NCBI GenBank assembly: GCA_965221165.1
Contig: CBDCRP010000003.1
Location: forward strand, 1,888,001 to 1,952,000
Source of the DNA: a bacterium
Lineage (GTDB): Bacteria > UBA8248
Length of the DNA stretch: 64,000 bases
Reading direction: 5' to 3'
Part shown: piece by piece, positions 18,683 through 52,550 of the stretch
Layout: each line of letters starts with the position of its first letter
How positions within the stretch are numbered: position 1 is the first letter of the stretch
Translations under genes and position numbers: made by a program
The notes under the pieces: generated by a model
What the model was told of the DNA's origin: nothing
The model's input: the letters and a program-made list of their open reading frames with translations, nothing else
The model's database searches: none

Positions 18683-18972
18683 CGAATCCGACCGAGGAGG
18701 AAGGATTCGCCGACCGGGGAGAGTCACTTCTCGTAGGGGCGGACCTATGCGTCCGTCCGCATGTCGTTTTAGTTGTCAAACCGGTTGTAGGGGACGCATA
18801 TATGCGTCCCGTGGTTTGACGGCCAAAGACAAAGGGACGCATGTATGCGTCCCCTACACTCCAAATGACCTGTTCGGGATGTTCGACCGATAGAGCAACA
18901 GATATGTGTACCCTCCCGTCTCAGACGGCGAACCCTCCTTCCTCAGTCGGGTTCGACCCTCAAGGGGGGAGT
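18683..18972. repeat. Intergenic repeat cluster: GTAG-type REPs flanked by two oppositely oriented 27-nt hairpin modules
   Basis: GTAGGGGCGGACCTATGCGTCCGTCC, GTAGGGGACGCATATATGCGTCCC and the inverse GGGACGCATGTATGCGTCCCTAC; hairpin modules at 18683-18709 (+) and 18929-18955 (-). Confidence 0.85.
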
Positions 18973-18998
18973 GAATCGAGAAGCCGCGGGCGGTTGTT

Positions 18999-19892
18999 CT
19001 AGTCCAGATCGGGCCGTTCCTCATCCTGATAGTGCCCCAAACCCTTGGGCGCGGCGCCGTTGTTGCGAAGCACGTGCATGGGCGCAGGAACGAGCGGCTT
19101 CCACTGGGTTTCCTCAGGGGGCTCGGGCCACTCGTGAGAGAGATGCTGGTAGGCGTTCGGGCCATCTGCGGCTTCTAAATGCGCGCACATATCGTCGCAC
19201 ACCGAGCGCTGGCCTTCTCTGTCGCCCACGTCTCCCAACATGCGTCCGAAGGGATACTGGATGAACACCGCCCTCGGCACGCAGACCTTCTCCGAGACTT
19301 CAGGCTGATTGCATATCGAGACGGTGGCGATTCCCAAATCTTCCAATCTTCTTTGCAGCAGGCTCACGGACCGCATGCAAAGCGGTCAGACGGGGATGAG
19401 CAAGGCCGCGTCCACGCCCTCTGCGTGCATCTTCTCGGCCATCAGGGGGGCCGTTTTCTTCATTAGGGGATGGAAGTTGGGCGTATAGCCCATGGTGGAG
19501 TAGAGGGTGTCGGCCAGTGCGCCGATTTTTCCCTCGCGCTCGTAATCCAGGAAGATATCCACCGGAAACGAGACGTTCCTGTCGCGTTTCAGATATTCGG
19601 TGTTGATGTGTAAGTGCGAGTATTCGCAATCATCCTGAGCGGCCGTTTTGGGAATCTCCCGGTGCGTGGGGTCTCCCCAGTGCGGCTCGCGCCACTCGCG
19701 CTCATAATCGAAGGAAACGTCTCCCTTCATGAATATGCCCGCCGTGGAGACGAGGGTTACCTTGCACTCCGAGAGCGGTTTTCCCAGCGGCGTCCAAGGC
19801 GTCTTGGCCGGATCGGCAGGCCGCATCGCGCCGATGCGCGTTTTGCTGCCGGGATAATAGACGTATCCATCGACTGTCGTGATTGGTGACAT
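18999..19892 (-). CDS. Selenoprotein, glycine/sarcosine/betaine/D-proline reductase B-like (297 aa, Sec169 in UxxC)
   Basis: Track ORFs 19386..19892 and 18999..19376 are in the same frame, joined by GTC-TGA-CCG-CTT-TGC-ATG (V-U-P-L-C-M). Family motifs PWTPLGKPLSECKVTLVSTAG, DRNVSFP, EGVDAALL and GIATV...VPRAVFIQYPFG lie on both sides of the UGA. Confidence 0.88.
19351..19382 (-). promoter_or_regulatory. Bacterial SECIS-like hairpin
   Basis: Starts 3 nt after the UGA: CUUUGCA-UGCGGUCC-GUGA-GCCUGC-UGCAAAG, with a perfect 7-bp lower stem and an apical-loop G at +19 from the UGA. Confidence 0.72.
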
Positions 19893-19978
19893 GGGAGTTT
19901 TACTCCTCCTCTCGCACTATTCTTATCGTCTCGCCCGCAGAAAACCGGGCCTTGCGTTCTTTGTCCTCATACCATGAA

Positions 19979-20809
19979 TCAATACATCGTATACAAAACG
20001 CACAGGAGTTGATTCGCCAACTCCGCGTTTCCTTCGATTTCAAAGCGGCCGGAAATCTCCATGGCCCCGCGCTTCGCGCGGCCGTATATCATCAGCAGGT
20101 GCGCCTCGCCGTCCGCGGTGATTGTGGCGTCGTGCGCGCCCGACGTGTCGGCGGATTCTTCCGCCTTCTCGCCGGCGACGGTGAGCGTCCACGCGCGATC
20201 GGGCATCTTTGAGCGGAACAGGAAGCGACCATCGAAGGGCGGGTTCTCGCGGACGCCGAAAAGACGGCTCTGGGTCGAGGGCAGGAAGCTCATGATTCCC
20301 TCCACGCTCTGAGATGCAACGCAAGCCTCCGGATCCTCTCCGTAGCGGATGTCCCAGTCGTGCATCGCCAGTTCGACGAGCCTGAGCCCGATCCAGGCGT
20401 CGAGCCGCGTCAGCCCCCGGGGGTGAAAACCGTGCTTGCCCAAGTCGTTAGCAGTAATGTCCCCGAGCGCGCCGTTCACCTCGGCGGCGGAGACGTCGAA
20501 CGCATCCATCATCTCCTCCCTGGGCAGGGCCATGAGTTCCTCGCCCCTGGCGCCGCGGATGGCGAAAAACTCCTTCACGTTGCTACCGTAGGGCGGCTCG
20601 GGCGGCAGGCCCTCCAAGGCCCTGCGAATCGAGTTCGCATAAAAATCGCCCCCCGTCGCCAGGTGGGAGACGGCGTGACGCGCCCGCCAGCCGGGGCAGA
20701 ACGTGTCCACCTCCCAGCGCGCGTCCGAAAAACCGCGCCAGCACGCCGAGAGGCGCTCGGTTTCCGATTTCACCAAAGCGACTCGAGAAAGTTGTTCTTC
20801 AGGGCTCAC
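19979..20809 (-). CDS. DinB/mycothiol-dependent maleylpyruvate isomerase family (MDMPI-like) protein with SCP2-like C-terminus
   Basis: TFCPGWRARHAVSHL and ELAMHDWDI metal-binding His pattern; GGAGG RBS before GTG 20809. Confidence 0.82.
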   Translation of the reverse strand: MSPEEQLSRVALVKSETERLSACWRGFSDARWEVDTFCPGWRARHAVSHLATGGDFYANSIRRALEGLPPEPPYGSNVKEFFAIRGARGEELMALPREEMMDAFDVSAAEVNGALGDITANDLGKHGFHPRGLTRLDAWIGLRLVELAMHDWDIRYGEDPEACVASQSVEGIMSFLPSTQSRLFGVRENPPFDGRFLFRSKMPDRAWTLTVAGEKAEESADTSGAHDATITADGEAHLLMIYGRAKRGAMEISGRFEIEGNAELANQLLCVLYTMY

Positions 20810-21036
20810 GTGGGCGCACCTCCGTCTCGCGCAATCGCGATTCGTCTTTGAAAGAGAAATCCCCATCTCATGAATGGGGAGAGGATTCAAGTATTGCGAA
20901 ACCCGGGGCCGCCGGCAAGGGCCGCAAGCTGGCGGGGGGAGGGGGAGTTCTGCTAGGTTATGGCCTCGTATCGAGGAGAAGCGAGAGGAGGCGGAATCTC
21001 TCGGGAACGCTCCTCTTTTCAGGAGACGAAAAACCC

Positions 21037-22362
21037 ATGTCCCCATTGATGGTGGTCGCCGACGGCGAGGGCAACCTGTTCGAACACCCCGAACTCGAAA
21101 TGGTGGGCGCGCAGGGGGCCGAACCCGTGGCGCCGGAACCCGAGGAACTCTCTCCCCTGCCTGGTGGGAGCAAGTTCTTCACCATCCCGGACAGCATTCC
21201 CGTGGGCGGCGACGCGCAAGAGGACGCGCTCGTGAGCGTGGAGGAAGCGGACTGGGGCGATGGCCCCGCCGCCTTACAGGCCGCCTGCACGTTTCCCTCG
21301 CCCGGGTGGATGCGCACCCTGCTCCCCTTCGCCGAGAGAGACCCCGGCGCGCAGACGCTTCCGCTTTGGGCCTACACCGCGCTGGGTTTCGATGAGGAGA
21401 GCGGCGAATTCGTATGCGCCGCCGTTCGGGTGGATGACTGCCCGCGCTGGGAACCCGAGGAATACGACGACACCGGCCTCACCGGGCGAATCGAGCAGAT
21501 GCGCGTAGCCCACCCCAAAAACCGGATGATCCCCCACCTTGCGCGCTGCGCGCGTGAGTTCCACTGTTTCGCGGCGAAAAACTTCTTCGCCGGCCGCTGG
21601 GAGATGGGACTGCCCATCGCTCCGCTTTGCAACGCGGATTGCAGGGGGTGCATATCCCTCCAGACGGACGACCTCTTCCCGGCAAGCCACCAGCGCATCG
21701 AGATAGTCCCCACACCAGAAGAACTTTGCGAAATCGCCGCTCCCCATCTCGATGGCGCGGAGATGGCCGTCGCCAGCTTCGGCCAGGGATGCGAGGGGGA
21801 GCCGCTGCTTCAGGCAGGCGTCATCGAGCGCGCCTGCCGCCTCATCCGCGAGCGAACATCGCGCGGCACCCTGCACCTGAACACGAACGGCAGCCGGCCC
21901 GAGTGGATGGAGCGTCTTAGCCTGGCGGGCCTGGAGAGCATACGCATCAGCACGAACAGCGTGACGCCCGAGTGGCACCACGCCTATTACCGGCCCGAGA
22001 CGTATGATTTCACCCACGTGGAAGACTGCGTGAAGGCCGCCGTGGACGCAGGGCTCTACACGCAGATCAATTATCTGGTCTTCCCCGGCGTCACGGATCT
22101 GGAAGCCGAGGTCGAGGCGACCCTCGACTTCGCGCTGAGATGCGGCCTGCACGTGATCCAGATGAAAAACCTCTGCATCGACCCCGCGCTCTATCTCGAC
22201 ACCCTGCCCGATATCGGGGACATGGGGGAGGCGATGGGCATGGTGCGGGCCCTGGAGGTCTACCGAAAAGAACTGCCCGACGTGGCTATCCGCTACTTCA
22301 ACCGTCCCAGGGAGGAATGGCACATCGACCCCAAAGCCTCCCCGGTGAGGGCTGTGCGATGA
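21037..22362 (+). CDS. Uncharacterised radical SAM protein
   Basis: CNADCRGC (CxxxCxxC), SFGQGCEGEPLL, LNTNGS; its stop overlaps the rimO start (ATGA). Confidence 0.9.
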   Translation: MSPLMVVADGEGNLFEHPELEMVGAQGAEPVAPEPEELSPLPGGSKFFTIPDSIPVGGDAQEDALVSVEEADWGDGPAALQAACTFPSPGWMRTLLPFAERDPGAQTLPLWAYTALGFDEESGEFVCAAVRVDDCPRWEPEEYDDTGLTGRIEQMRVAHPKNRMIPHLARCAREFHCFAAKNFFAGRWEMGLPIAPLCNADCRGCISLQTDDLFPASHQRIEIVPTPEELCEIAAPHLDGAEMAVASFGQGCEGEPLLQAGVIERACRLIRERTSRGTLHLNTNGSRPEWMERLSLAGLESIRISTNSVTPEWHHAYYRPETYDFTHVEDCVKAAVDAGLYTQINYLVFPGVTDLEAEVEATLDFALRCGLHVIQMKNLCIDPALYLDTLPDIGDMGEAMGMVRALEVYRKELPDVAIRYFNRPREEWHIDPKASPVRAVR

Positions 22363-23762
22363 GTGGAGAACTTCTGCAAATCAAGCCCATATCCGAGATG
22401 CCCCTCGTGCGGCGCGACGCGCCCATACCCTTAGGATCAGAAGCGCCCAGCGCCGCGCTCATATCGCTCGGCTGCGCCAAGAACACGGTGGATTCAGAGA
22501 TCATGCTCGCCGCCCTCGCGGGCGCGGGCTACCGGCTCGTGAGCGAGGCGGAGGACGCGCAGGTCGCCATCGTCAACACATGCGGCTTCATCGAGGATGC
22601 GAAGCGCGAATCGATAGATGTGATTCTGGAGGTCGCCCAGCTTAAAGAAGAAGGCGATCTGGAAACCCTGGTGGTGGCGGGCTGTCTGGCCGAGCGCTAC
22701 CGGGGAGAACTCGCCCAGGGCTTGCCCGAGGTGGATCTGTTCATCGGCACGCGCGAATACGATCAGCTTCCTGCTCTTCTGGGCGGAGGGCGCGGCGGAG
22801 CGCGCGAGGCGTTCTCGGACACCTTGATGGATTACGGCAGGAGGCTGCCGCGCATCCTCGCGGAACCGGGCCCCAGCGCCTATTTGAAGGTTGCCGAAGG
22901 CTGCTCGCGGCCCTGCACGTTCTGCGTGATTCCCAGGTTTCGCGGCAGGTTCCGTTCGCGTCCGCTCGATCTGGTGGTCGAAGAAGCGAGCGCCTTGGCC
23001 TGCGCGGGCGTGCGGGAGGTGAACCTTCTCGCACAGGAGATCACGAGCTACGGGGTCGATCTGGGCCTTGGCTTCTCGCTCGCGCGTCTGCTGGAAGAAT
23101 TGAACCGCACGGAAGGCCTCGACTGGATCCGCGTGCTCTACAACTACCCGCGCGGGGTGACGGACGAGTTGCTCGACGCCTACCGTGACCTCCCAAAGGT
23201 GTGCGAGTACATCGACATGCCGCTCCAGCACGTCGCCACGCCCGTGCTCGCCGCCATGCGGCGCGGCATCGACGAGGCGGGCACGCGCGAACTCGTAGCG
23301 CGTATCAAGGAGAAAATACCCGGCTGCGCGCTCAGGACCACCATGCTCGTCGGCTTTCCGGGGGAGACGGACGAAGATTTCGAACTCCTGCTCGACTTCG
23401 TGAAAGAGACGCGCTTCGCCCGGCTGGGCGGTTTCGTCTTCTCGCCCGAGGATCGCTCCATCGCGGCGCGGCTGCCCGATCAGGTTCCCGTGGAACTCGC
23501 GCGCGAGCGCATGGCGCGGCTCCTGGCGCTTCAGGAGCGCATCATGGCCGAGGACAACGAAGCCCTCATTGGCCAACGGGCGCAGGTGCTCGTCGAGGGC
23601 CTGACGGGAGAGGGACTCCTGCGCGGGCGCACGCGGCTGCAGGCCCCGGAAGTGGACGGCGAGGTATTCCTTCATGAAACTGAAAGCCAGCCGGGAGAGA
23701 TCATCGATTGTGAGATCATCGGCTCAGACGGCGTGGACTTGGTGGCGCGGGGCGTCGACTGA
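22359..23762 (+). CDS. rimO: Ribosomal protein S12 methylthiotransferase
   Basis: SLGCAKNTVDSE, NTCGFIEDAKRES, GCLAERY, CSRPCTFC, YIDMPLQH, TRAM domain ending APEVDG. Confidence 0.93.
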   Translation: MSGELLQIKPISEMPLVRRDAPIPLGSEAPSAALISLGCAKNTVDSEIMLAALAGAGYRLVSEAEDAQVAIVNTCGFIEDAKRESIDVILEVAQLKEEGDLETLVVAGCLAERYRGELAQGLPEVDLFIGTREYDQLPALLGGGRGGAREAFSDTLMDYGRRLPRILAEPGPSAYLKVAEGCSRPCTFCVIPRFRGRFRSRPLDLVVEEASALACAGVREVNLLAQEITSYGVDLGLGFSLARLLEELNRTEGLDWIRVLYNYPRGVTDELLDAYRDLPKVCEYIDMPLQHVATPVLAAMRRGIDEAGTRELVARIKEKIPGCALRTTMLVGFPGETDEDFELLLDFVKETRFARLGGFVFSPEDRSIAARLPDQVPVELARERMARLLALQERIMAEDNEALIGQRAQVLVEGLTGEGLLRGRTRLQAPEVDGEVFLHETESQPGEIIDCEIIGSDGVDLVARGVD

Positions 23763-23785
23763 AGCGAGACTTTAGGAGACATCGA

Positions 23786-24610
23786 ATGAACGAAACATCC
23801 ACATACGACCCGGAAGCCTTTCGGGAATTCGAGCGTACGGGCTGGAACGGCGCTGCGGGAGAATACAACGATCTGTTCGGCGTCATCACCGCGCAGGCGG
23901 TTCCTTCCCTGCTCGACGCCGTGGACGCGCGCTTCGGAACGCGCCTGCTCGACTTGGCCTGCGGGACGGGGGTCGTCTCTGCGGGAGCGCTCATGCGCGG
24001 ATGTACGGTAATGGGGGCGGATTTCGCCCCCGACATGGTAGGCGAGGCCGCCCGCCGCTGGCCGGGGGCCGAGTTCAGGCACTGCGACGCGGAGGAGATG
24101 CCCTTCGAGGATGCGCGCTTCGACGCCGTGGCGAGCAACTTCGGCTTCCTGCACTTCCCGTATCCGGAAGTCGCGCTGGCCGAGACCGCCCGCGTGCTCG
24201 AGTCCGGCGGAAAACTCGCCTTCACCGCCTGGACGCACGACGCGGGCCACCGGGCATTGATGGCGAGGGCCATTCAGGAGCACGGCGATACGAGCGTCCC
24301 CCTCGTGGCCGGCCCGCCCGCCCCGTTCCCCGACGATGATGAAAAATGCGCGCGCGCCTTTGAAGAGGCAGGCTTCACCGCGCCCGAGATCACAGGATTT
24401 ACCCTCTACATGCAGGCGGAAGAGCCCGGCCGGATCATCGAGGTGTTCGAGAAGTCCACCGTGCGCACGGCGTCGCGCTTAAACTCCCAGACGCCCGAGG
24501 CGAGAGAGAGGATACGGGAAGCGTTGGTCGGGATGCTGCGCGAATACGAGCACGACGGAACCATCCAGGTGCCCATGCAGGCCCGGCTCATCTCGGCGCA
24601 GAAGAAATAG
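23786..24610 (+). CDS. Class I SAM-dependent methyltransferase (UbiE-like)
   Basis: LDLACGTG, DAEEMPFEDARFDAV; AGGAG RBS. Confidence 0.9.
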   Translation: MNETSTYDPEAFREFERTGWNGAAGEYNDLFGVITAQAVPSLLDAVDARFGTRLLDLACGTGVVSAGALMRGCTVMGADFAPDMVGEAARRWPGAEFRHCDAEEMPFEDARFDAVASNFGFLHFPYPEVALAETARVLESGGKLAFTAWTHDAGHRALMARAIQEHGDTSVPLVAGPPAPFPDDDEKCARAFEEAGFTAPEITGFTLYMQAEEPGRIIEVFEKSTVRTASRLNSQTPEARERIREALVGMLREYEHDGTIQVPMQARLISAQKK

Positions 24611-24691
24611 GGGGCGAGGAGCGCGCCATGCGGCGGCTTGCGAGCCTGCACCCCCCCTACCCGGTCCAAAACCCTCTTTATTCATGAAACG

Positions 24692-24768
24692 CCTTTATTT
24701 TCAAATAGTTAAATTTTCAGATATTTTTCCTATTTTTCGCCTTTTTTCGGATATTTTCACCAATTCCC
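24692..24768. repeat. AT-rich element with five 10-bp phased T-tract units (copy 1; copy 2 at 37985-38061)
   Basis: aaattttcag/atatttttcc/tatttttcgc/cttttttcgg/atattttcac followed by attccc. Confidence 0.75.
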
Positions 24769-24860
24769 GAGGGAGCTTCGGCGCGAAAGATTTATCCTCA
24801 ATCCCCGAATGAACCAACGAGCGCGCTGCCGTCCCAAGACCGCGCATGAAATTTTCAGGT

Positions 24861-25101
24861 CGTCATTCCGGCGCATGCTGGTGGCAACCGGGAGGTTGAC
24901 CAGAACCACGGGAATGCCAACACCGCAAACCGACCATCAAAACAGATAAAATCAAAAGCAAGGGCAAAGTGAAGTGTCCCGCGTGGGACATTTCTGGATT
25001 CCGGCATGCGCCGGAATGACGGCGTAGAAGAAATAGGGCAGTCGCTCTCAACTACCCAAGACCGCGTTTTTCGTAGGGGCCGCATACATGCGGCCCCTAC
25101 G
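24861..25101. repeat. Palindromic repeat element with 18-bp perfect terminal IRs plus a GTAG REP palindrome
   Basis: CGTCATTCCGGCGCATGC (24861-24878) / GCATGCGCCGGAATGACG (25004-25021); CGTAGGGGCCGCAT-AC-ATGCGGCCCCTACG (25072-25101). Confidence 0.85.
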
Positions 25102-25157
25102 GCAAAGCCATGCGCGGCGATTGCGGGCGGCTCCCGTGATGCAACAAAAGCATCCAC

Positions 25158-26012
25158 CTACGGACTTACGCGGGCGGGCGGCGTCTCGCCGTTCATCCAC
25201 GCGGCGATGGCCGCCACCGTTTCGCGCTCGGCCCCTATGAACCCGTGCGCGCTCATCGCCTGGCAAGGATGGCTCAGCGGCGTGTCTCCCCCGCTCACGG
25301 TAACGAAACCCTTGCGCGGGCTTTTCGTAATCGTGCGGTATGAGGCCACCGCGTCGGGGTAGGTCGTGACCCGGCATTCATCATCCTCATGATGGGCCAT
25401 CAGGACGGGGCTTTCGATGTCCTCCGTATAGAAAACGACGTCCTCCATGCTCGCCGTGAGAACGTAGCCCTTGACGTTCGGGTGCGTCATCACGGACGCC
25501 AGATATGCGACGGACATCGTGCCCCTGCTCGTGCCGATCAGGAACACCTCGCGCGCTCCCTCGCTCACCAGAAAATCCACCGAGGCGCGTATGTCCACAC
25601 GATGCGCCGGGGAAGTCCTGAAAGCATCGTCCAAACCGGAGCTTCTGTCCGAGGGCGCATCGGCGATAGCCGTGACGAACCCCGCCTCGGCGAAGAGCGC
25701 AGAGCTCCTCACCAGAAAATTGGTGTTGAGCCTGAGCCTCTTCCCTTCTTTCCTCGTAATCGGCGTTCCCGAACCGCCCTTGAAGAGAATCACGGCCTTA
25801 TCGCCCGCGTTCGCCGCCCTGGCGATCACAAGTCGCTGCCGTACGCCAAGGCGCGTGGGGAGACGCACGTCCTCCCAGGCGAGCGATGCACCCACCCCGA
25901 AATCGCCGTAGGGCAGGACGTCCACTTTTTCCCGTTCGACTTGCGCAGCTTGCGGCGCACCGACGCCCATAAGAACAAAAGAGAATATCGCCGCCGGAAT
26001 CCATCGCGTCAT
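25158..26012 (-). CDS. Exported alpha/beta hydrolase
   Basis: Signal peptide, GTSRG nucleophile elbow, HHEDDEC, CQAMSAHGF. Confidence 0.85.
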   Translation of the reverse strand: MTRWIPAAIFSFVLMGVGAPQAAQVEREKVDVLPYGDFGVGASLAWEDVRLPTRLGVRQRLVIARAANAGDKAVILFKGGSGTPITRKEGKRLRLNTNFLVRSSALFAEAGFVTAIADAPSDRSSGLDDAFRTSPAHRVDIRASVDFLVSEGAREVFLIGTSRGTMSVAYLASVMTHPNVKGYVLTASMEDVVFYTEDIESPVLMAHHEDDECRVTTYPDAVASYRTITKSPRKGFVTVSGGDTPLSHPCQAMSAHGFIGAERETVAAIAAWMNGETPPARVSP

Positions 26013-26095
26013 CTGTGTGCTCTTTCGTAATCCCTCGGCCCGGGGCGCATCAAAGTCGGGGCGATGCCGTGCCCCATGAACCCGGCGCCGACCAT
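26009..26095 (-). pseudogene. N-terminal remnant of a 3-hydroxyacyl-CoA dehydrogenase (28-codon micro-ORF)
   Basis: Translates MVGAGFMGHGIAP..., matching the GAGxMGxGIA Rossmann start of that family, then degenerates. Its stop overlaps the hydrolase ATG. Confidence 0.65.
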
Positions 26096-26105
26096 GCTTG
26101 TCGTC

Positions 26106-26891: not shown

Positions 26892-26988
26892 GTCGCGCCG
26901 TCCGGTCCGCCGCCAGGCAGGGCGCGAGAAAACATCGCCCCGGGAATCCATCGCGTCATTCGCGTTTTCTTTCTGCTCATTGTGATTC

Positions 26989-27726: not shown

Positions 27727-27852
27727 CTCGAAGGTATAACCCATGCGCCGAGCGGTTCACAATCGCCGCATACCTCGGTCGGCAAACCCTTCTTCCCCGG
27801 TCGAGTTTGACCCTTGCCGGAATAAGCGGGCGCTTCACGAAGCGCCCCTACG
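27727..27852. repeat. 39-bp dispersed repeat, hairpin module and GTAG REP
   Basis: 27727-27765 matches 39151-39189 inverted (37/39); hairpin module 27783-27809 (-); GGGCGCTTCACGAAGCGCCCCTACG. Confidence 0.8.
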
Positions 27853-28781: not shown

Positions 28782-28788
28782 CGCCGGA

Positions 28789-31413: not shown

Positions 31414-31415
31414 AG

Positions 31416-38061: not shown

Positions 38062-38149
38062 TCAAGCCCCCGAAGAGCCTGGGCCGCCTCGCCACGATAC
38101 GCGAGTTTCCTCCATGCGCAGCAGCGGCAATTGCGGGCAGGTGCGGTGC

Positions 38150-38540
38150 CCAATCTCGACCGATGAGGGAGGGTCAAACCCGACTGAAGAGGGAGGGTCA
38201 AACCCGACTGAAGAGGGAGGGTTTGCCGACCGAGAAGGGAGTCGAACTTCCACGAGGAGGGGGGGTCAAACCCGACTGAGAAAAGAGGGTTTGACCGACC
38301 GATGAGGGAAGTGCTCGTAGTAGGGACAACCCCCTGTGGTTGTCCCTACCCCCTGTGGTTGTCCCTTGTCACGGCAGGCTTGGATGTCGGACAGGCGCGG
38401 GGGCCTGTCCCTACAAACAAAGGCTGATGCGGTGGGGGGACAATCGCGCGCCTTTCGTAGGGTCGGACATATATGTCCGACCCATGTGTCCGCCCGCGCA
38501 TACGTCGTCAGGGAGAACACACGGGTTCTCCCCTACGGAT
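38150..38540. repeat. Tandem 24-bp hairpin-module repeats followed by a GTAG REP (BIME-like) cluster
   Basis: GAGGGAGGGTCAAACCCGACTGAA at 38165 and 38189; then GTAGGGACAACCCCCTGTGGTTGTCCCTAC, GGACAGGC..GCCTGTCCCTAC, GTAGGGTCGGACATATATGTCCGACCC and GGGAGAAC..GTTCTCCCCTAC. Confidence 0.88.
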
Positions 38541-38564
38541 CCTGGCGACCGAAGAGGGATTGAT

Positions 38565-38594
38565 TTGACGAAACCTGGAATATCTTTTTATAGT
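38565..38594 (+). promoter_or_regulatory. Putative sigma70 promoter
   Basis: TTGACG-N18-TATAGT about 45 bp upstream of the small CDS at 38638. Confidence 0.5.
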
Positions 38595-38637
38595 TGTTTC
38601 AGAAGTGCCGGAGGACTCGATTCGAGAGAGAGAAAGA

Positions 38638-38865
38638 ATGATGACGAACTACGAATCCCTGAGTCTCCTCGCCGCCTATCTGAACCTCCTCGCCTCCTTC
38701 GGCGGTCTGGGGCTGATCTACTACGGCATTCGCGCGATGACGAAAGGCGCCGAAATGCGGGCGGCGGACTCCGAGCGCAAGCACAGTGAGACGATGACCG
38801 ACTCCGGGCGCAGGCACGACCAGTCGATGGCGGCGTTGCGCGAACTCATCGAACGAACCAGATAA
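38638..38865 (+). CDS. Small membrane-anchored coiled-coil-like protein
   Basis: N-terminal hydrophobic helix (LSLLAAYLNLLASFGGLGLIYYGI), then RKHSETM...RRHDQSMAALRELIERT; host-like codon usage and an upstream promoter. Confidence 0.65.
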   Translation: MMTNYESLSLLAAYLNLLASFGGLGLIYYGIRAMTKGAEMRAADSERKHSETMTDSGRRHDQSMAALRELIERTR

Positions 38866-39000
38866 TCAATTCCGACTGATCAAGGAGGAATTGCCGACTG
38901 AAGAAAGAGGAATTGCAAACGAGTACCCCGTCTCCCGTCGGGTAGCGTCTCCTGGTGGTGAATCGCGGGCAGGGATCGATCAGGCGCCACCCATTCACCT

Positions 39001-45112: not shown

Positions 45113-45460
45113 AAAAAGAGGGGGTTACTCATTATTCCCATTCCTCGCCAGAGGACCCAACTCGAACAGGGAATGGTACTTGCTACTCCACGAGGTTGAG
45201 CAGCCAATGAGTAACCCCCGATTTATTCACCTTCGCCTATATACCCTGAATGCGCCCTCGAAATTCGCCCCGCCATCCGGGAGCGATGCTCCGAAATAAA
45301 AAGAGGGGGTTACCCATTGCTTCCCATTCCGTGCCGGGGGACTCAGCCCCTACAAGGAATAGTGGTTGCGACTCCACGAGGTTGAACAGCCAATGAGTAA
45401 CCCCCAATTTCTTCACCTTCGCCTATGCGCTCCGAATGCACCCTCGAAACTCGCCCCGCC
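45113..45460. repeat. Diverged tandem duplication (45113-45274 / 45298-45460) of a gene 3' end plus a ~100-nt multi-stem element, probably terminator or ncRNA
   Basis: Both copies have a GGGGGTTACYCATT...AATGAGTAACCCCC closing stem, inner hairpins, and a minus-strand U-tract. Confidence 0.8.
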
Positions 45461-46167
45461 GGCGGCCGTCGAGACGCCGAAAGCACCCGCGACGGAGCCC
45501 GGGGCTTCTTTTGCTTCCGCATCCATCACTGAAGCCTCGCCGTAGAATTCACCGCTCCATTCTCCCGAGTATTCACTCCCGGATACGTCGCCCGCGGCCA
45601 CCCCGTGAAAGGGCTTTCCACGTCGCCGAATGCGGCCTCCATGAGAATGATTCTTCCGTCCGGCGTCTCATCGCCCTGAAGAGTGATTCCCGAGAGAACG
45701 CCTCCGATGGTTTTGCCGTCAAAATCAGCTTCAAGCCCTATCCTGGCATCGAAATGCCGGACTTCGCCCGCCCGGGTATGTGCGCCGAGGGCGCCTCCTT
45801 CGTAGGTTGCCGAACCTTCGATCCTGTCGGGCTCACCGCCCAAGTCGAAGGGAGTTCCACCAGGGAGGAGGGCGCCGGGATCGAATTCGGGATTCTCGGC
45901 GAGGAAGAAAGGCGCGCCGCCGAAGGCGACGGCGCCGAGATCGAAAGCGTCGCCATCGGGAGCGGACAGCCAGGCTCCGGCCGAGAGATAGTCCACGTCC
46001 GCGTCCGCAGACGTTTCTCTATCCGAGGCGACCGCGACGCCGCTCGCAAGCGCCTCGCCCGCGCCATAATTTCCGGCTTTCGGCACTGCGGCATGACCGC
46101 CGCTTCCGCCGCCGCAACCGGAAATCATGACTGCCTGCAAGACGAGTATGAGAAAGATGTAAGGCAT
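45413..46167 (-). pseudogene. TbpB-like beta-barrel surface lipoprotein, frameshifted at a G4 run (45601-45604)
   Basis: Lipobox ISGC followed by GGGSGG; GSATYEGGALG and LEADFDG; the barrel end (WSGEFYG...PGSVAGAFG...FEGAFGA) is in another frame, and one extra G rejoins them. Confidence 0.78.
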
Positions 46168-46318
46168 ATGGATTAAACCCTTACGAAATCGGCACGTATT
46201 CCCCTTTTCTGGTTCTCGCAAAAAAATGCTACCTCCCGGAACCATAGCGATGCGTACGAGGCCGACTTTGGCGGCATCTCCACTTCTTTGCCTCTGGCGA
46301 AACATTTTATTTACATAT

Positions 46319-46348
46319 TTGACTAAACGTTCATTTTAGTTTTATAAT
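46319..46348 (+). promoter_or_regulatory. Near-consensus sigma70 promoter with overlapping palindromic operator
   Basis: TTGACT-N18-TATAAT; ACTAAA-N7-TTTAGT inverted repeat at 46322-46340. Confidence 0.6.
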
Positions 46349-46924
46349 ACCCCTCTAAATTAGTTTCATACAAAAGCCGCTTTCGTATTTGAATTGTTGA
46401 ATTCGCTATGAGGCCAGATCACCCATACAATCCTCCCAAATCCACACGAGGATTGCTTTACCTCAAGCCCCTGGTCGAAATCCGGGCTGGTTGGCATACA
46501 ATCCACGATTTGGAAGAAAAGTGGGTTCCCGCCTATTCCAACTCTTGGGAAGAGTCGTCTTGTATTCAGCGGGCAGCCCGTGAGATCGACCACACATGGA
46601 TTGTATGCCGAGTAAAATAGTGGAGGATTGAATTTGACTTGTCAAGTGTGAAATGGGGCTTTTATACGAACCTTACAATATCTTTAAGAAAAAATTCGCT
46701 ATCCCCCGAGGAGGCGAAAAACAGGAAACACCACCTCTTCGATTCAGGGAATCCCCTCCAAATCATCTCTCTTTTCGCTCATCCGGCATCCGGTTTCCCG
46801 TCGTGTGTTAGGCCTGTCTTACTTGAAATTTTCTCCGCGGCAGGGTTCGGGGCACGCTCCGCCTGACTCTTTGAATCCACCTGCCTGCAAGCCCGGCGCG
46901 CGCCCATGACGCCCGGGCGGGACG

Positions 46925-47362
46925 CTACTTCTGCGCCCAGTCGGGAATTTCCTCGCCCTCGGGGACGTACTGCAACAGCTCTATCGCGAGGCCTCCCGTG
47001 GTGGCGGCGTTCGCGAAGGTGATGACGCCGCCGCGCGACCCGTAAGTGGGCGGAAGCGTGAACTCCACCCCCCTGGCCTCCCATTCGGCCATCGTGGCCC
47101 TCAGGTCATCGACGACGAAGCAGATATGGTGCAGCCCCTCGCCGCGCGCGGCGATAAACCGGTTGAGCGGGGCATCGGGATTGCTCATCTCCACGAGTTC
47201 CATCACGGCGCCTTCGGCCTCGTAGAAATCGAGACGGGCGGTGTTGCCGGGGCGCTCATAGACCTTTCTCTCCAGGAACCGAAAACCCAGCAAATCCTCC
47301 ATCACGTCCTTTTTCCCGTCCAGATTGCTGACGGCGTAGCCCAGGTGATCCACTTTCGGCAT
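46925..47362 (-). CDS. VOC family protein (methylmalonyl-CoA epimerase-like)
   Basis: VDHLGYAV, MELVE, RGEGLHHICF, TGGLAIELLQ. Confidence 0.85.
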   Translation of the reverse strand: MPKVDHLGYAVSNLDGKKDVMEDLLGFRFLERKVYERPGNTARLDFYEAEGAVMELVEMSNPDAPLNRFIAARGEGLHHICFVVDDLRATMAEWEARGVEFTLPPTYGSRGGVITFANAATTGGLAIELLQYVPEGEEIPDWAQK

Positions 47363-47632
47363 TTTTCAAAACTCCTCCGGAATAAAGAAACGATCCTGCG
47401 AGAATCATCCACAGGCTAACCCGCGCCTCCGGGCGGGCGCAAATTCACCGCGGCCCGGGCGGTCTCCCCCGCGAACGTGATAGATCCCCGCCCGAAGAGG
47501 GGATTGTCCCAAAGAACGCCTCCCGGGAGAACACCCACCCGGCGTAGCAGCCACCCCTGCGGGGTAGCTACCCGAAGAAGCGATATGTATACTCAGCCTC
47601 TTTTGCGGAACAAAGGGGATTATCGAGAACGC

Positions 47633-48517
47633 ATGTCTGCCATTCTGCCGCTTTTGAACATCGTTTTTCCGGTCATGGCCCTGGTCGGCATCGGCTTCCT
47701 CTACGGCCGGTGGAAAAAGCTCGACCCCAAGGTGCTGGCCGAGATGGTGCTGTTCCTCCTCGCGCCAGCCGTGATGTTCGACGCCCTGGCGCGCCAGCAA
47801 ATCCAGTGGGAGGAACTGGTCAAGGCGGGCGTCTTCTCCATTCTGATTCATATCATCCCCGGGGCGGTCGCCTACGCCGTCAAGCGCGCGGCGGGCATGA
47901 CGCAGCGCTCCTTCGTGCCCAGCGTGATGCTCATGAACTCCGTCTCGCTGCCCTATCCCCTGGCGCTTCTGGCATTCGGCGAAGAGGGTCTGGCGCACTT
48001 GGTGCTGCTCTCCATCCCGAACGTCTTCATCACCTTTTCCTTGGGAATCATGGCCCACGGAGGCGGCACGAGCATCAAGGAGCCCCTCAAGATGCCCGCC
48101 CTCTATGCGGCGATAGCGGGCATCATCGTGGCGCTGGCGGCGATTCCCGTGCCCAGATTCATCATGCGCTTCGCGCACCTGACCGGACGCGGCATGTTTC
48201 CGGTGGAACTCTTCACGCTGGGCTACCGGCTTCGCTCCATCCGGGTGTCGGATTTCCGCCTAAGCCTCCTGGTGGCGGGTCTCAGGTTCGGGATCGGTTT
48301 CTCGCTGGCATGGGCGCTGTCCGAGGCCTTTGCGCTCACGGGCGTGTTCCGCGCGTCGCTCTTCCTCTTGTCGTGCAGCCCGCCCGCCGTGCTGAACTAC
48401 ATTTTCGCCGAGCGCTACGGGGACGAAGGCTCCCTCGCCGCCTCCATCGTATTCACGGGCACGGCGCTGAGCTTCATCACCACGCCCCTGCTTCTGCTGT
48501 ATCTGGGAGTGTCCTAG
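47633..48517 (+). CDS. AEC (auxin efflux carrier) family transporter
   Basis: About 10 TM segments; NSVSLPYPLALLAFG, PPAVLNYIFAERY. Confidence 0.88.
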   Translation: MSAILPLLNIVFPVMALVGIGFLYGRWKKLDPKVLAEMVLFLLAPAVMFDALARQQIQWEELVKAGVFSILIHIIPGAVAYAVKRAAGMTQRSFVPSVMLMNSVSLPYPLALLAFGEEGLAHLVLLSIPNVFITFSLGIMAHGGGTSIKEPLKMPALYAAIAGIIVALAAIPVPRFIMRFAHLTGRGMFPVELFTLGYRLRSIRVSDFRLSLLVAGLRFGIGFSLAWALSEAFALTGVFRASLFLLSCSPPAVLNYIFAERYGDEGSLAASIVFTGTALSFITTPLLLLYLGVS

Positions 48518-48806
48518 AATTTCCGGCAGGCAGGCTATATCTCCAAACGAGAGCCACCCGGCCGTTATAAGATCAGATCGGGCGCTTGGGCCGATGTTTC
48601 CGACCGGCAGGCTTTGTTCGCGCACCGGATCGGCGCAGCCGACTCGAAACGCGCGCCCGGACCGGTGTTTCTGACTGGCAGGCATCGTTTCCAAGCTGAA
48701 ACAATGCAGCCGTCATGAGATCGGCCGCTTCGGCCAGCGTTTCCTGCGGGCAGGCATCACCCGCGAACCGAAACCGCGCAGCCCGCATCGCCGACTCGAA
48801 GCGCGC

Positions 48807-49520
48807 CTAGCCCCGTGTTTCCCCCTGGCCGACCTTGCCCTTGAGCCACAGCCTCAAAGGCTCCTGAAAATAGACCGCCGCCGCCGCGATGAGGACGGTG
48901 ACTACCAGCAGAGTGACCACCAGGCCGTAATGCCCCTTATACATCCCGGCTCCCTGGACCCCCAGCATGATGGTGCCGGGGATTCTGCCCAGAAAGGCGA
49001 TCAGCACGAAGGTCAATGTCTTGAGCGGACTCAGGCCCAGCAGGTAGCACATGTAGTCCTTGGGAAAGCCTGGAATCGAAAAGAATATAAAGGCGAGAAA
49101 CGCGCCCCTGCTCGTGATGAGGAAATCGAATTTCTCCAGAATCCCTGGCGGTATGAGCTTCTCCACGAAGGGACGGCCCAGCTTTCGCCCGAAGTAGAAC
49201 GCGAGGAAACTCCCCAGCGTCAAACCGATGGTGCTGAATACCGTCGCCACGAACGCGCCGTAGACGTAGCCGCCCAGAAACCCCGTGAGTTCGCCGGGTA
49301 TGGGAGAGAAAACCACCTGGAACACCTGCACCCCGATGAACACCACCGGACCCCAGTGGCCGAATGAGTGAATCCAGTCCCGGAACTTCTCTTTCTTGTC
49401 CTGGAGCTTCACCAGGTTCGCCCAGGCGGCGTCCAACTCGCCCCAGAAAAGGTAGACGAGCAGCGCGGTCGCCAGCAGGCAAAACCCCGCCGCCCATAGG
49501 ATTTTCGTCTTGCCGTTCAA
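48807..49520 (-). CDS. TVP38/TMEM64 (VTT/DedA-related) membrane protein
   Basis: QVVFSPIPGE, FYFGRKLGR, IPGFPKD, GRIPG. Confidence 0.88.
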   Translation of the reverse strand: MNGKTKILWAAGFCLLATALLVYLFWGELDAAWANLVKLQDKKEKFRDWIHSFGHWGPVVFIGVQVFQVVFSPIPGELTGFLGGYVYGAFVATVFSTIGLTLGSFLAFYFGRKLGRPFVEKLIPPGILEKFDFLITSRGAFLAFIFFSIPGFPKDYMCYLLGLSPLKTLTFVLIAFLGRIPGTIMLGVQGAGMYKGHYGLVVTLLVVTVLIAAAAVYFQEPLRLWLKGKVGQGETRG

Positions 49521-49769
49521 CTCGGGTATTCCTCTTGCGGGCGAATAAATACTTGGAACCAAAACGAACCATTACATACCATCAAATCACCCGCATGGGT
49601 AACAATAAAACCCTTTTCGGCGCAATTGTTGACATCGAAGCGCTCACCGCCCAAGATCGACCCTCCACGAGACATGTCCGGAGTCATTGGAGAAGACATG
49701 GCAAACGCCCGCCCGAACGCGCATCCCGAAAACTTGAACGCAGACTCCGCGCGCCCGGGGGAGAGCCGC

Positions 49770-50957
49770 ATGAGCGCGGGCGGCATCACAATTTCCGAAC
49801 TCACGAGCGCGGTCAAGGAATGCGCCCTCTCGCACGGTTTCGACGTTGCCGCGGTCGCCCCTCCCGGCCTGGGCCAAGCGCACGGGCGATACCTCGAATG
49901 GATCGAGCGAGGCTACGCGGGCGAGATGAGCTATCTGGGCAGAAACCCCTATGTGCGCGGCGATTTGCGCCGCCTCTGGCCGGAGACGCGCACAGCCCTC
50001 GTGGTCGCCATGTGCTACAAGCCCGAGGAGGAAACGCCCCACGGGCGCGGGCAGGGGAAAATCGCGCGCTACGCCCACGGCGGGGATTACCACAAGTTCA
50101 TGAAGAAAAGGCTGATTCGCGTTCTGCGCGACCTTAAAAGTATCGACCCCGGAATCGAGGGCAGAAGCTACGTGGACACCGGTCCCCTGCTCGAGCGCGA
50201 CCTGGCCGTCATCGCGGGCCTGGGCTGGAAAGGAAAAAACTCGCTCCTGCTCTCGCGTCGGCTGGGGAGTTATTTCTTCCTGGGATGCCTGCTCCTGAAC
50301 CGTGCGCTCGAGGCGGACCCGCCCTTCGTCGAGGAGCATTGCGGCACGTGTACGCGGTGTATCGACGATTGCCCGACGGACGCCATCATAGCGCCCGGCG
50401 TGGTGGATGCGCGGCGCTGCATCTCCTACCTCACCATTGAGCTCAGAGGCCCGATTCCCAGGGAGCTCCGCGCTCCGGTGGGCGCGCACGTCTTCGGCTG
50501 CGACATCTGCCAGGAGGTCTGCCCCTGGAACGATGACGCCCCCACCGCGCGCGAGCCGAGGTTCGCCCCCCGCCCGGCGGCGCGGAATCCGCAATTGCTC
50601 GATTTCCTTGCCATGAGCGAGACCGGGTTCCAAAAGACGTTTCGCGGCACGCCCGTCAGGCGCGCGCGCTACGGGGGTTTCCTGAGAAACGTCATCGTCG
50701 CGGTCGGCAACACGGGCGGCGCGGAGAGCATCGCACCTCTAAGCCGCGCCCTCGAGCACAGAGAACCCCTGGCGCGGGGCCACGCCGCGTGGGCGCTCGC
50801 CCAGGTCGGCAAACGTATCCGCGATGAGCGCGCGCGCTTCGCTCTCGAAGCCAGGCTCGAAGTCGAAAGAGACGCCTGGGTGCGCGAGGAGATCGAACTG
50901 GCCCTCGGCGAATTCGCCCTGCTGTCGCTTCCCGTCTACGGGAGCGAGGGGTCATAA
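49770..50957 (+). CDS. queG: Epoxyqueuosine reductase
   Basis: IARYAHGGDYH, YVDTGPLLER, CGTCTRCIDDCPT, RCISYLTIE, FGCDICQEVCPWN, C-terminal HEAT-like repeat. Confidence 0.96.
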   Translation: MSAGGITISELTSAVKECALSHGFDVAAVAPPGLGQAHGRYLEWIERGYAGEMSYLGRNPYVRGDLRRLWPETRTALVVAMCYKPEEETPHGRGQGKIARYAHGGDYHKFMKKRLIRVLRDLKSIDPGIEGRSYVDTGPLLERDLAVIAGLGWKGKNSLLLSRRLGSYFFLGCLLLNRALEADPPFVEEHCGTCTRCIDDCPTDAIIAPGVVDARRCISYLTIELRGPIPRELRAPVGAHVFGCDICQEVCPWNDDAPTAREPRFAPRPAARNPQLLDFLAMSETGFQKTFRGTPVRRARYGGFLRNVIVAVGNTGGAESIAPLSRALEHREPLARGHAAWALAQVGKRIRDERARFALEARLEVERDAWVREEIELALGEFALLSLPVYGSEGS

Positions 50958-51191
50958 ACCAGCAGGTCAATGAAAGAAATCCCTCAAAAGCAAACTAATC
51001 CCTTACCTCAACCTGCCCGTCAGGCGCGATGCGCCGTTCTCTTCGGCCCTAAACAAGCAAGCACAATACCGCTCGATTCCTCATCTCAAACCCCGCCGGG
51101 CGTTCCGGCGCTTTCTCTCGTGTGCTAGAATCGGTGCTTCTAAAAACAACTCGGCGTCTTAAAGCCGGTTCAAACACGATGGGAGCGCGCC

Positions 51192-51995
51192 ATGAAGACC
51201 GTATCCGTAAACGGAATCGATATCGCCTACCAGGAATCTGGGAGCGGGGCGCCGCTCCTGCTCCTGCACGGGTTTTCCCTGGATCACACCATCTGGGGGC
51301 CCCAGGTCGAAGCGCTTGAGAGAAGCTACCGGGTACTGGCTCCCGATATGCGCGGCATGGGCAGAACGGCGCACTCAGGCGGCCCCATCACGGTCGAGAT
51401 GATGGCCGACGACATGGCGGCCTTCTTAGGCGCGCTCGATATCAGCGCCGCCGCCGTGGCGGGGTTTTCCCTGGGCGGCTACATCCTGCTCCAGATGGTG
51501 GTCCGCCATCCGCTGAAAGTCCGCGCGTGCGGTTTCATCAGCACCCGGGCGACGGCGGACTCAGAAGAGGGCAAAAAGGTGCGCCTACAGCACATGCAGA
51601 CCGTCATCAACGAGGGGATGGCGGGTTTCGCGGGGCATTTTCTGGAGAGCCTGTTTGCGCCCGCCTACATAGATGCCCATCCGCTAGAAATAGAGGCCAC
51701 GCAAAAGGTCGTGCTCTCACAAATCCCCGACTACATCGCCTCGCTCATCGACGCTCTGCGCACGCGCGAGGAGATGACGCCGCGCCTGGGCGAAATCGCC
51801 GTTCCATGCGCCGTGTTCGGCGGCACGGGCGATGCGCTGGTGCCGCACGCGCAGATGACCGCACTGCACGAGGGGCTGAGCGATTCCGTCATCGAGTTGG
51901 TCGAAGGTGCTGGCCACACGACGCCGTTCGAGTGCGCCGATCGCGTGAGCTTTCAGCTCGACCAGATGATGCAGCGCGCGGGCATGTGGATGTAG
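51192..51995 (+). CDS. Alpha/beta hydrolase (3-oxoadipate enol-lactonase-like)
   Basis: LLHGF, PDMRGMG, GFSLGG, GAGH. Confidence 0.88.
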   Translation: MKTVSVNGIDIAYQESGSGAPLLLLHGFSLDHTIWGPQVEALERSYRVLAPDMRGMGRTAHSGGPITVEMMADDMAAFLGALDISAAAVAGFSLGGYILLQMVVRHPLKVRACGFISTRATADSEEGKKVRLQHMQTVINEGMAGFAGHFLESLFAPAYIDAHPLEIEATQKVVLSQIPDYIASLIDALRTREEMTPRLGEIAVPCAVFGGTGDALVPHAQMTALHEGLSDSVIELVEGAGHTTPFECADRVSFQLDQMMQRAGMWM

Positions 51996-52006
51996 GCTTG
52001 GCGTAA

Positions 52007-52550
52007 GGGGATGTTGAAAAAACCCCAAAAAACAGGGAATGGATTTCTCAATCGACATACGCTAATGAAATGACTCCCCCCTTGAGGGGGTTGTTGAAAA
52101 ATCCGGTCCTGGGAGCGAGCGCAAATGCAGTTCCTCCTTTCTCAGTCGGAACTGACCTCATCGGTCGCGTCAAACCCTCGTTTGCATGGCCACCGTATCG
52201 ACCTCACCCTGAGTAGCCGCCGAAGGTCAAACGCGACTGAGAAAGGAGCGTTTGTATCGAAGGGCGCTACCTTTCGATGCGCCCCGTTTGACCCTCCCTC
52301 CTCGTAGGGTCAAACCCTCGATACGGCGCGCGAGCGCGCCTACTCGGGATGAGGGAGGTATTCGCCGCCAGGGCGGCGAATACGTCGTGGATCAAACGCG
52401 AGTGAGGAATGTCAAATCCGAGTGAGGAGCGAGGATTTGTTTGACGCGAGTGATGAACAAGCGTTTGCCGACCGACGAGAGAGGTATTACGCGCAAGGGC
52501 GACGAATGCGCCGCAGGCATTTTCCCTTGAGGGGGTTTTTCAACAACCCC
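52007..52550. mobile_element. Non-autonomous MITE-like element with IS-type terminal inverted repeats and nested palindromic repeats
   Basis: GGGGTTGTTGAAAAA (52087-52101) is the exact inverse of TTTTTCAACAACCCC (52536-52550); a second left end GGGGATGTTGAAAAA starts at 52007; no transposase. Confidence 0.7.

Follow-up and report, generated by a model that had tools for sequence, protein, structure and literature searches.

A dispersed hairpin with a folded tandem-G·A core as a candidate REP-like mobile module in a Nitrospinota genus

The 64,000-nucleotide stretch analysed here (the window; C3:1888001-1952000 of the host genome G000, 3.69 Mb in three contigs) carries nine copies of a small hairpin in which 7-bp stems of differing sequence enclose a nearly constant 13-nt loop. 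The question raised by this locus is what keeps the arms complementary while their sequence changes, and how the copies came to be dispersed. The original prediction, made from the window alone, had offered either selection on a structured RNA or single-stranded DNA (ssDNA) or an insertion mechanism that writes an inverted copy of a variable 7-mer on each side of a fixed loop. The evidence presented below tips toward the hairpin being a lineage-specific, non-autonomous mobile DNA module of about 30 nt that resembles the repetitive extragenic palindromes (REPs).

All nine predicted hairpins were present. The loop pattern GASYGRNNARNRA occurred 19 times in the window compared with 4.92 ± 2.08 times in shuffled sequence, and 0 of 100 shuffles reached 19. 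A covariance model, R1, was built from an alignment (A1) of 49 copies, the nine of the window and 40 from elsewhere in G000. Run without filters, R1 returned exactly the same nine hairpins in the window with scores of 39.9-52.5 bits, the next best match (52285-52316) scoring 21.9 bits. As predicted, the nine have eight different left arms and one G·T pair, in the copy at 27783-27809. Genome-wide, 490 loop matches were found, 90 of them enclosed by stems with seven of seven Watson-Crick pairs and 48 by stems with six of seven. The 90 perfect copies had 19 left arms, all variants of CAAWCSC with near-fixed C1 (84/90), A2 (82/90) and C7 (90/90); the commonest were CAAACCC (17), CAATCGC (15) and CAATCCC (10). 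Particular stem types travel with particular loops and flanks, and the abundance of a few types suggests copied sub-lineages. With a unit length of 27-33 nt, at least 133 R1 matches and 145 matches to the pattern plus stem in 3.69 Mb, the hairpin has the size and number generic to REPs, which are small palindromes of 20-40 bp in high copy.

The 13-nt loop proved to be structured itself. In a scan of G000 for perfect 7-bp stems closed by C...G, with the loop sequence left unfixed, 99 hairpins with GA..GA had a loop of 13 nt and no more than seven had any other length from 9 to 18 nt, confirming the constant loop length. Among these 99 copies, loop positions 3/11 were C-G in 76 and G-C in 12, positions 4/10 were C-G in 48, T-A in 37, T·G in 11 and C·A in one, and 92 had G at position 5 and A at position 9. 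From the outside inwards, the unit therefore comprises a 7-bp stem, a tandem G1·A13/A2·G12 mismatch, an inner stem of two pairs (C-G followed by Y-R) and, at the tip, a G-R-N-N-A pentaloop. The description in the original prediction is corrected in this respect, the 13-nt loop being structured. The complete module begins with a purine-rich foot ending in G-T 5′ of the stem and ends with the return strand, usually followed by C. Of 134 copies, 122 have T at -1, 121 have G at -2 and 88 have C at +1, with a purine run upstream, giving a foot consensus of R-G-G-T.

In A1 (46 distinct rows), 98.6% of cells paired, compared with 32-51% in slid controls, and eight of the nine pairs varied on both sides. 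The outer stems in A1 were picked as perfect, so that only the two inner pairs provide an unbiased test. These pairs, which played no part in copy selection, formed in 42 and 44 of the 46 rows and covary, in agreement with the predicted selection on structure. G1, A2, G12 and A13 were invariant in A1, a result to be read with the loop pattern used for selection, in which G1, A2 and A13 are fixed and G12 is restricted to purines. The two G·A pairs suggested in the original prediction also fit the minimum-energy RNA fold (ViennaRNA), which gave the expected structure on the G-rich strand with the G·A pairs as a 2x2 internal loop. For three window copies, the G-rich strand folded with -16.3, -17.2 and -12.2 kcal mol-1 and the complement with -10.5, -14.3 and -8.3 kcal mol-1. 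Minimum-energy folds with DNA parameters reproduced the structure, with the same but weaker strand trend. Departures from Watson-Crick pairing were more often of the G·U type than of the A·C type on the G-rich strand, both in the outer stem (22 and 10, respectively) and in the inner pair 4/10 (T·G 11, C·A 1).

The structure matched no described family, as the original prediction had supposed. Rfam gave no match at gathering score in the 64-kb window, and a permissive scan of 38100-38960 returned only matches with E values of 1.3 or higher and 11-15 bits, among them a weak match to sR55 (E 4.2). The tags of the described REP classes were likewise lacking: of 145 copies, 8 had GTAG no more than 8 nt 5′ of the foot and 3 had it at the foot of the other strand, and CGTC occurred in at most 4 at either end. 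A looser GTAG-like guide upstream of the foot, GT[AG][AG]G*T, was found in 29 of 145 copies and at 9.8% of control GGT sites, an enrichment too weak to retain it. Hammerhead and box C/D identities were rejected for want of Rfam support; the kink-turn of box C/D RNAs was further excluded by Watson-Crick pairs that directly flank the G·A pairs on both strands, leaving no three-nucleotide bulge. CsrA-type GGA sites were rejected since GGA is lost in the G3-C11 variants (12/99). The hairpin modules in the 3′ untranslated region of nrdJ in G000 proved to be a different sequence.

The hairpin is confined almost entirely to one lineage. Exact pattern matches fell in metagenome-assembled genomes of Nitrospinota/Nitrospinaceae, which are uncultured and marine. 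With R1 applied to at most 150 candidates per genome, so that high counts are lower bounds, 16 other genomes of the same Nitrospinota genus had at least 58-139 matches each. Six genomes of the genus were low in copy (G001, 4; G006, 6; G008, 1; G009, 12; G015, 0; G019, 3), and outside the genus only one of 18 genomes had R1 matches (two). The loci of other genomes had been picked by the model or by a CAAACCC pattern, and their alignment was left out of the statistics.

Comparison of orthologous sites, which the original prediction had proposed as a check, identified both filled and empty sites at three loci. Locus 1 is the window hairpin at 18683, 2 nt past a TAG stop, for which spacers were read at 12 of 16 loci. 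A hairpin or its remnant was present in nine of the ten high-copy genomes read, the tenth (G022) having other sequence. The stems at this site differ yet pair (CGAATCC/GGATTCG in G000, CGAACTC/GAGTTCG in G012, CGAAACC/GGTTTCG in G017), with one T·G pair in G007; the copies in G005, G010, G011 and G016 are decayed, and in G020 an element with terminal inverted repeats (TIRs) splits the loop. The low-copy genomes G001 and G006 lack the hairpin family here and have a 39-58-bp spacer with a G+C-rich hairpin, and in G019, G008 and G015 the BLAST matches of the flanking genes abut or overlap, as judged from coordinates only. At locus 2 (C3:1361820), the hairpin and part of an element of ~107 bp follow the stop codon in only two of 23 genomes, G000 and G009. 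The gene at this locus is 87% identical to that of G000 in G009 and 92-94% identical in 15 of 20 other relatives; G009 is thus not the closest relative at this gene, and the site looks like one of repeated insertion. At locus 3 (C3:1309522), 11 of the 21 genomes read have a left arm (CAATCCC, CAATCGC, TAATCGC or CAGCCCC) after the stop codon and the other ten have unrelated sequence; in G004, G011, G002 and G014 the loop is broken after GAGG(G) by a TIR-like end.

Copies were mostly located at the 3′ ends of genes. With genes called by a scorer of open reading frames (ORFs) of our own, 139 of 145 copies were intergenic: 55 in convergent spacers, 69 in co-directional spacers (33 sense, 36 antisense) and 15 in divergent spacers. 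This is the extragenic, downstream distribution of REPs, most of which, in the available text of Di Nocera et al. 2013 (PMC3733652), are found 3′ of genes in convergent or unidirectional spacers. Other repeated DNA adjoined 122 of the 145 copies; the remaining 23 were solo units with unique flanks. The predicted tandem arrays were real (38158-38309, 38867-38915 and 52393-52482), each made of one or more full hairpins and repeated 22-24-nt units. Genome-wide, another loop start followed within 4 nt in 32 of 145 copies, and arrays consisted of tandem 22-24-nt units reading either 'loop + right arm' or 'loop + GGGT + left arm'. Many copies are half units that are not foldable. Neighbours within 120 nt formed 22 pairs, 12 inverted and 10 direct, and most copies were single, unlike the doublets of REPINs.

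Eighteen copies began 1-7 nt past the stop codons of ORFs of 87-691 aa, and all were in sense orientation, none in antisense. Random placement within the same spacers would put 1.9 copies per orientation near stops, and none of 2000 trials exceeded 8. In the 150 nt next to gene 3′ ends, 39 copies were sense and 21 antisense, a ratio that became 21:21 when the 18 stop-adjacent copies were removed. A foot of the form T-R-R-G+-T, most commonly TGAGG(G)T, was found in 57 of 145 copies, and stop adjacency may for that reason be partly a matter of target sequence. No role as an intrinsic terminator was indicated, T4+ occurring within 12 nt downstream in only 8 of 145 copies, and a Shine-Dalgarno role was rejected, with no copies within 10 nt and two within 30 nt of a start codon. 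In a check for replication-strand bias, 67 hairpins lay on the plus strand and 78 on the minus strand, and the GC skew was negative over nearly all of C2 and C3. Positive skew in these contigs was limited to C3 0-150 kb and a few bins, which is unusual for a two-replichore chromosome and may reflect gene-strand bias or contig layout.

The hairpin also serves as a landing pad for a family of miniature inverted-repeat transposable elements (MITEs) with TIRs. Several non-coding element families of 160-540 bp, present at window 52010-52551 and ~45 other places in G000, have GGGGTTGTTGAAAAA TIRs and ~9-bp duplications. By our reading, ~24 TIR ends abut a left arm and part of the loop, in either orientation. 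In five of 16 paired TIR elements, automated removal of the element and one duplication rebuilt a G·A hairpin, and by eye three more lie in variant hairpins. Three of the five have perfect 9-bp duplications (CCGATGAGG, CCGGGGAGG and CCAATGCGG). The duplication spans loop positions 3-11 and is therefore centred on the dyad of the hairpin. No transposase gene was found between any of the 16 paired GGGGTTGTTGAAAAA-type ends. Some of these elements carry hairpins as well. The composite element of the window has ~8 full or partial copies in G000 (81-91% identity), and the copy at 52228, taken in the original prediction to interrupt a simple palindrome, indeed lies inside inverted repeats, although these belong to the 465-bp TIR element: 52193-52220 is complementary to 52318-52354, as is GTATCGAAGG at 52254 to 52315-52324.

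The lineage-specific expansion, the filled and empty sites, the solo ~30-nt units, the arrays and mosaics, and the equal numbers of sense and antisense copies in co-directional spacers are the reasons for which a non-autonomous, REP-like mobile module is favoured, with moderate confidence. The hairpin multiplied in one sub-group of the genus and lies in intergenic DNA, alone or inside mosaic repeats and MITEs. The combination of a fixed G·A core and loop with free but pairing stems suggests a trans-acting factor that reads a folded single strand. This would be an enzyme whose substrate is most simply ssDNA of the G-rich strand. Only copies keeping the fold and the G·A/loop signature would then propagate, which would leave covarying stems around a constant core. 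Insertion would be oriented, 3′ of T-R-R-G(G)-like purine sites, and would place many copies in sense behind TAG and TGA stops. The module is set apart from GTAG and CGTC REPs and from the cognates of REP-associated tyrosine transposases (RAYTs) because it has neither tag and the RAYT-like genes of G000 are flanked by GTAG REPs.

Several observations weigh against this reading. No mobilising enzyme was identified among the RAYT-like, TnpB and reverse transcriptase candidates in G000. No target-site duplication was visible by eye around the 23 solo copies of the hairpin, which is its own inverted repeat. Contigs from two DNA runs of one sample showed only joints between repeat copies and no excision or recent movement. 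The copies at loci 1 and 3 have stayed in place while many species diverged, and may be useful there. Occupancy was ~3-fold higher at real gene stops followed by G (12/1114) than at other intergenic T-R-R-G sites (45/12208), so that target sequence alone is not the full explanation of stop adjacency. The gene-relative counts also carry the crudeness of the ORF scorer. Finally, the excess of T·G over C·A and the 18:0 sense bias behind stops fit selection in mRNA equally well.

For the last of these reasons, and for the long persistence at loci 1 and 3, a role in mRNA was kept open. The hairpin would then act as a 3′-untranslated-region element through its tandem sheared G·A pairs and GNRA-like pentaloop, by blocking 3′ exonucleases, docking a protein or, when 1-7 nt past the stop, slowing the terminating ribosome; transposition would only have spread the copies, and selection would keep the sense ones. 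This is a possible, if doubtful, alternative. It accounts for the sense bias at stops and within 150 nt of 3′ ends, for the G·U-type departures and for a G-rich strand that is, as RNA, 3-6 kcal mol-1 more stable than its complement. At locus 1, the stop-adjacent copy persists with altered yet pairing stems while the rest of the spacer turns over. REPs near stop codons in E. coli reportedly reduce translation of the upstream gene. A general role in mRNA is, however, at odds with the 33 sense and 36 antisense copies in co-directional spacers, with the loss of the 150-nt bias once the 18 copies are set aside, and with sister species whose same genes have no copies (loci 1-3). It also leaves aside the 122 copies that belong to other repeats and the many half units unable to fold, and no U tract or position as a ribosome-binding site was found.

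A further reading is a RAYT-free mobile module, defined by its structure, that would prefer stop signals and insert repeatedly and one-way 1-7 nt behind them, in some cases independently at the same site in different species. Its tandem-G·A/GNRA-like RNA hairpin would lie within the footprint of the terminating ribosome and modulate either termination on the upstream gene or decay of its mRNA, making it a selfish element partly domesticated as a 3′-end control device. We regard this as speculative and rather unlikely.

An ordinary REP of a REP/RAYT system, mobilised by tyrosine transposases of the host, is another alternative, and RAYT-like genes do exist in G000. Three lie within 8 kb (C2:920034-920648, 923530-924174 and 927801-928415), identified as homologues of a G012 ORF by tblastn and protein search. 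The second, the only one scanned, matched NCBIfam NF047646 REP_Tyr_transpos with an E value of 1e-19, its 70.9 bits falling short of the 80-bit cut-off, and Pfam Y1_Tnp with 23.9 bits. A Pfam Y1_Tnp search of G000 missed all three genes, a false negative, and the Y1_Tnp search over the genus was too insensitive for a correlation. RAYT-like homologues were found in 16 of 17 high-copy and two of six low-copy genomes, one of the three genes has a five-loop array of G·A hairpins immediately 5′ of it, and the conserved mismatches and conserved unpaired 5′ foot are as in the REPs described in the available text of Messing et al. 2012 (PMC3479197).

However, the hairpins do not flank the three genes as their cognates. 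All three are bordered by palindromes from a different, GTAG-footed family, GTAGGGGCGGAC...GTCCGCCC and GTAGGGACAGG..., and each carries an in-frame GTAGGG-type REP pair that separates the HUH motif from the C-terminal Tyr region. G000 has a second, classical REP population, with ~293 GTAGG-footed palindromes (both strands counted). The hairpins' own near-lack of GTAG, the presence of inverted doublets in only 12 of 22 close neighbour pairs, and the genomes that break the correlation also argue against a RAYT partnership: G010 has at least 125 hairpins and no RAYT-like match at E ≤ 1e-10, while G001 and G006 have RAYT-like genes and only 4 and 6 hairpins. Mobilisation by these RAYT-like proteins is accordingly judged improbable. 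In G012, three variant hairpins with a 64-nt period lie 3′ of the RAYT-like gene, and the protein (L065, C1:983506-984099) includes a GQPRGAGQPRGVGQPRGV stretch whose coding DNA is a tandem repeat.

Other candidate enzymes fared no better. A flanking transposase or reverse transcriptase had been proposed as a check in the original prediction; the transposase-like genes exist, as described, but with GTAG REPs at their flanks, and a reverse transcriptase was rejected as the mobiliser with the single such gene of G000 at least 23 kb from any hairpin. That gene is the only RVT_1 match (C3:1276839-1277540, minus strand) and lies in a 693-aa open frame. A profile search of G000 for TnpB (PF07282) found none. 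A single gene in G000 has a hairpin no more than 250 bp away on either side; this gene does not encode a transposase and is conserved in low-copy genomes.

It is very unlikely that the fold is under no selection and that the hairpins are passive parts of larger MITEs, with arms kept complementary by template switching or gene conversion. Such correction would also remove the G·A/A·G mismatches, yet all four positions are invariant. The 23 solo copies with unique flanks, the fixed loop length of 13 and the strand-specific excess of T·G over C·A also count against this explanation. It does fit the 122 copies that adjoin other repeats, the ties between stem type and larger element (CAATTCC occurs with GAGCGARGAGCGA and a common 3′ flank in five copies) and the orthologous C-G/G-C swaps (CAATCCC and CAATCGC), which copy replacement explains more easily than a pair of point mutations. 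The second proposal of the original prediction, an inverted copy of an arbitrary local 7-mer, may be all but dismissed: it was prompted by the eight arms among nine window copies and is compatible with empty sites that have no pre-existing arm, but all 19 arms are related to a single consensus in which three positions are almost fixed, and the sequence past the stop at empty sites is unrelated to the arm in filled orthologues (loci 1-3).

The favoured mobile module can be placed among known systems. It is like the GTAG- and CGTC-tagged REPs and bacterial interspersed mosaic elements (BIMEs) of Proteobacteria, as covered in the available text of PMC3733652 and PMC3479197, in being a 20-40-nt palindrome with more than 100 copies per genome, extragenic and mainly downstream of genes in convergent and co-directional spacers. 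It is also like them in its conserved stem mismatches, conserved unpaired foot, mosaics with other motifs and lineage-specific expansion. It is unlike them in having the foot R-G-G-T instead of a GTAG or CGTC tag, and in occurring mostly as single units and direct arrays rather than inverted doublets, in a genome whose RAYT-like genes are flanked by another REP class. Its stem is free (19 variants) and its apex is fixed and folded (tandem G·A, 2 bp, GRNNA). The conserved part is thus a small folded motif, the opposite of classical REPs, whose copies have a common stem sequence.

REPs are known as targets of insertion sequences (ISs), in five IS families according to the available text of Tobes and Pareja 2006 (PMC1525189). 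As with the REP-targeting IS1397/ISKpn1, IS621 and ISPpu9/10 described there, transposable elements here land inside the palindrome, in this case elements of 350-465 bp with GGGGTTGTTGAAAAA ends, in the loop; unlike those, they are non-coding MITEs and make a ~9-bp duplication over loop positions 3-11. The sub-terminal hairpins and guide tetranucleotides of IS200/IS605 elements, as presented in the available text of PMC3479197, likewise involve an imperfect hairpin read in ssDNA, a short conserved 5′ foot and oriented insertion 3′ of a short target with no visible duplication. Here, in contrast, there is no associated TnpA or TnpB, PF07282 having found nothing in G000, and the unit is the hairpin alone.

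Among structured RNAs, some likenesses are evident. Phage lambda boxB is a hairpin with a GNRA-like pentaloop, and tandem sheared G·A internal loops occur in rRNA and in the stem II region of the hammerhead. The present hairpin likewise has a G-N-N-N-A loop on a short stem beside 5′-GA/5′-GA mismatches, and half of the copies spell CUGANGA, a resemblance only; it has no hammerhead three-way junction, GAAA, kink-turn bulge or Rfam match. Its ~135 copies, dispersed in either orientation, do not have the appearance of a dedicated RNA gene.

Among the papers searched, none paired Nitrospina with extragenic palindromic repeats, and none was relevant to repeats in Nitrospinota or sponges. The coexistence of the hairpins with GTAG REPs and RAYT-like genes, in no obvious partnership, may point to a second route of hairpin propagation, a question that the available text of Di Nocera et al. 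(PMC3733652) leaves open for CGTC REPs. The sense-only orientation behind stops and the use as a MITE landing pad provide concrete handles on how repeats reshape gene ends. In practical terms, R1 flags copies that break short-read assemblies and can pass for regulatory RNAs.

The features of the window are collected in Table 1.

Table 1. Hairpin units, arrays and the composite element in the window, with the evidence for each.
Coordinates	Strand	Feature	Evidence
18680..18712	+	Hairpin unit: GGT foot, CGAATCC / 13 nt / GGATTCG, then CCG	R1 47.7 bits
18926..18958	-	Hairpin unit CGAACCC/GGGTTCG	R1 52.5 bits
27780..27812	-	Hairpin unit CAAACTC/GGGTTTG, one G·T pair	R1 39.9 bits
38155..38309	+	Array of six loop units (38158, 38182, 38206, 38228, 38274, 38297)	Pattern and R1
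38547..38559	+	Orphan loop motif without arms	R1 12.2 bits, E 0.23
38864..38915	+	Hairpin CAATTCC/GGAATTG at 38867-38893, then a 'loop + right arm' half unit	R1 42.0 bits
52087..52551	.	Composite non-coding element of ~465 bp, TIRs GGGGTTGTTGAAAAA ... TTTTTCAACAACCCC, carrying four hairpins	Sequence comparison
52125..52157	-	Hairpin unit CAGTTCC/GGAACTG within the 465-bp composite element	R1 48.2 bits
52225..52257	+	Hairpin unit CAAACGC/GCGTTTG within the composite element, nested in longer inverted repeats	R1 47.0 bits
52285..52316	-	Weak variant hairpin, 12-nt loop, longer arms	R1 21.9 bits
52410..52484	+	Hairpin CAAATCC/GGATTTG at 52413-52439 (loop G3-C11) and loop units at 52448 and 52470	R1 42.5 bits

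The first hairpin, in sense orientation, starts 2 nt past the TAG that ends ORF 18345..18680, and the hairpin at 38867-38893 sits 1 nt past the TAA stop of the small ORF 38605..38865. The repeat module CACTCCCCCCTTGAGGGT lies 5′ of the second hairpin on the hairpin's strand. Two full hairpins are contained in the first array, at 38199-38225 (R1 51.4 bits) and 38267-38293 (45.5 bits). GTAGGG-footed palindromes of the classical REP type, for example GTAGGGACAACCCCCTGTGGTTGTCCCTAC and GTAGGGTCGGACATATATGTCCGACC, occur in the window at 18720-18860 and 38310-38500.

The window copy of the 465-bp element contains a 17-nt insertion at 52263-52279 that is missing from six other aligned copies. The insertion gives rise to a local palindrome (ATCGAAGGG / CCTTTCGAT) and resembles the product of template switching. 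A further MITE-like element of ~107 bp, with GCTGATGCGGTGGGGGG ends and an A/T-rich centre, was found at C3:1178160-1178290, C2:310270-310370 and C3:1361740-1361870, with a G·A hairpin just inside each end. Its relatives in G007 and G022 have the ends and centre and no hairpins, so that the hairpins appear to have entered the two arms separately. Elsewhere in the window, the summed contig depth at 24603-25269 was ~1200-1600 compared with 10-30 in the remainder (two DNA runs), indicating a stretch common to a very abundant sequence in the sample, either a repeat or a conserved element.

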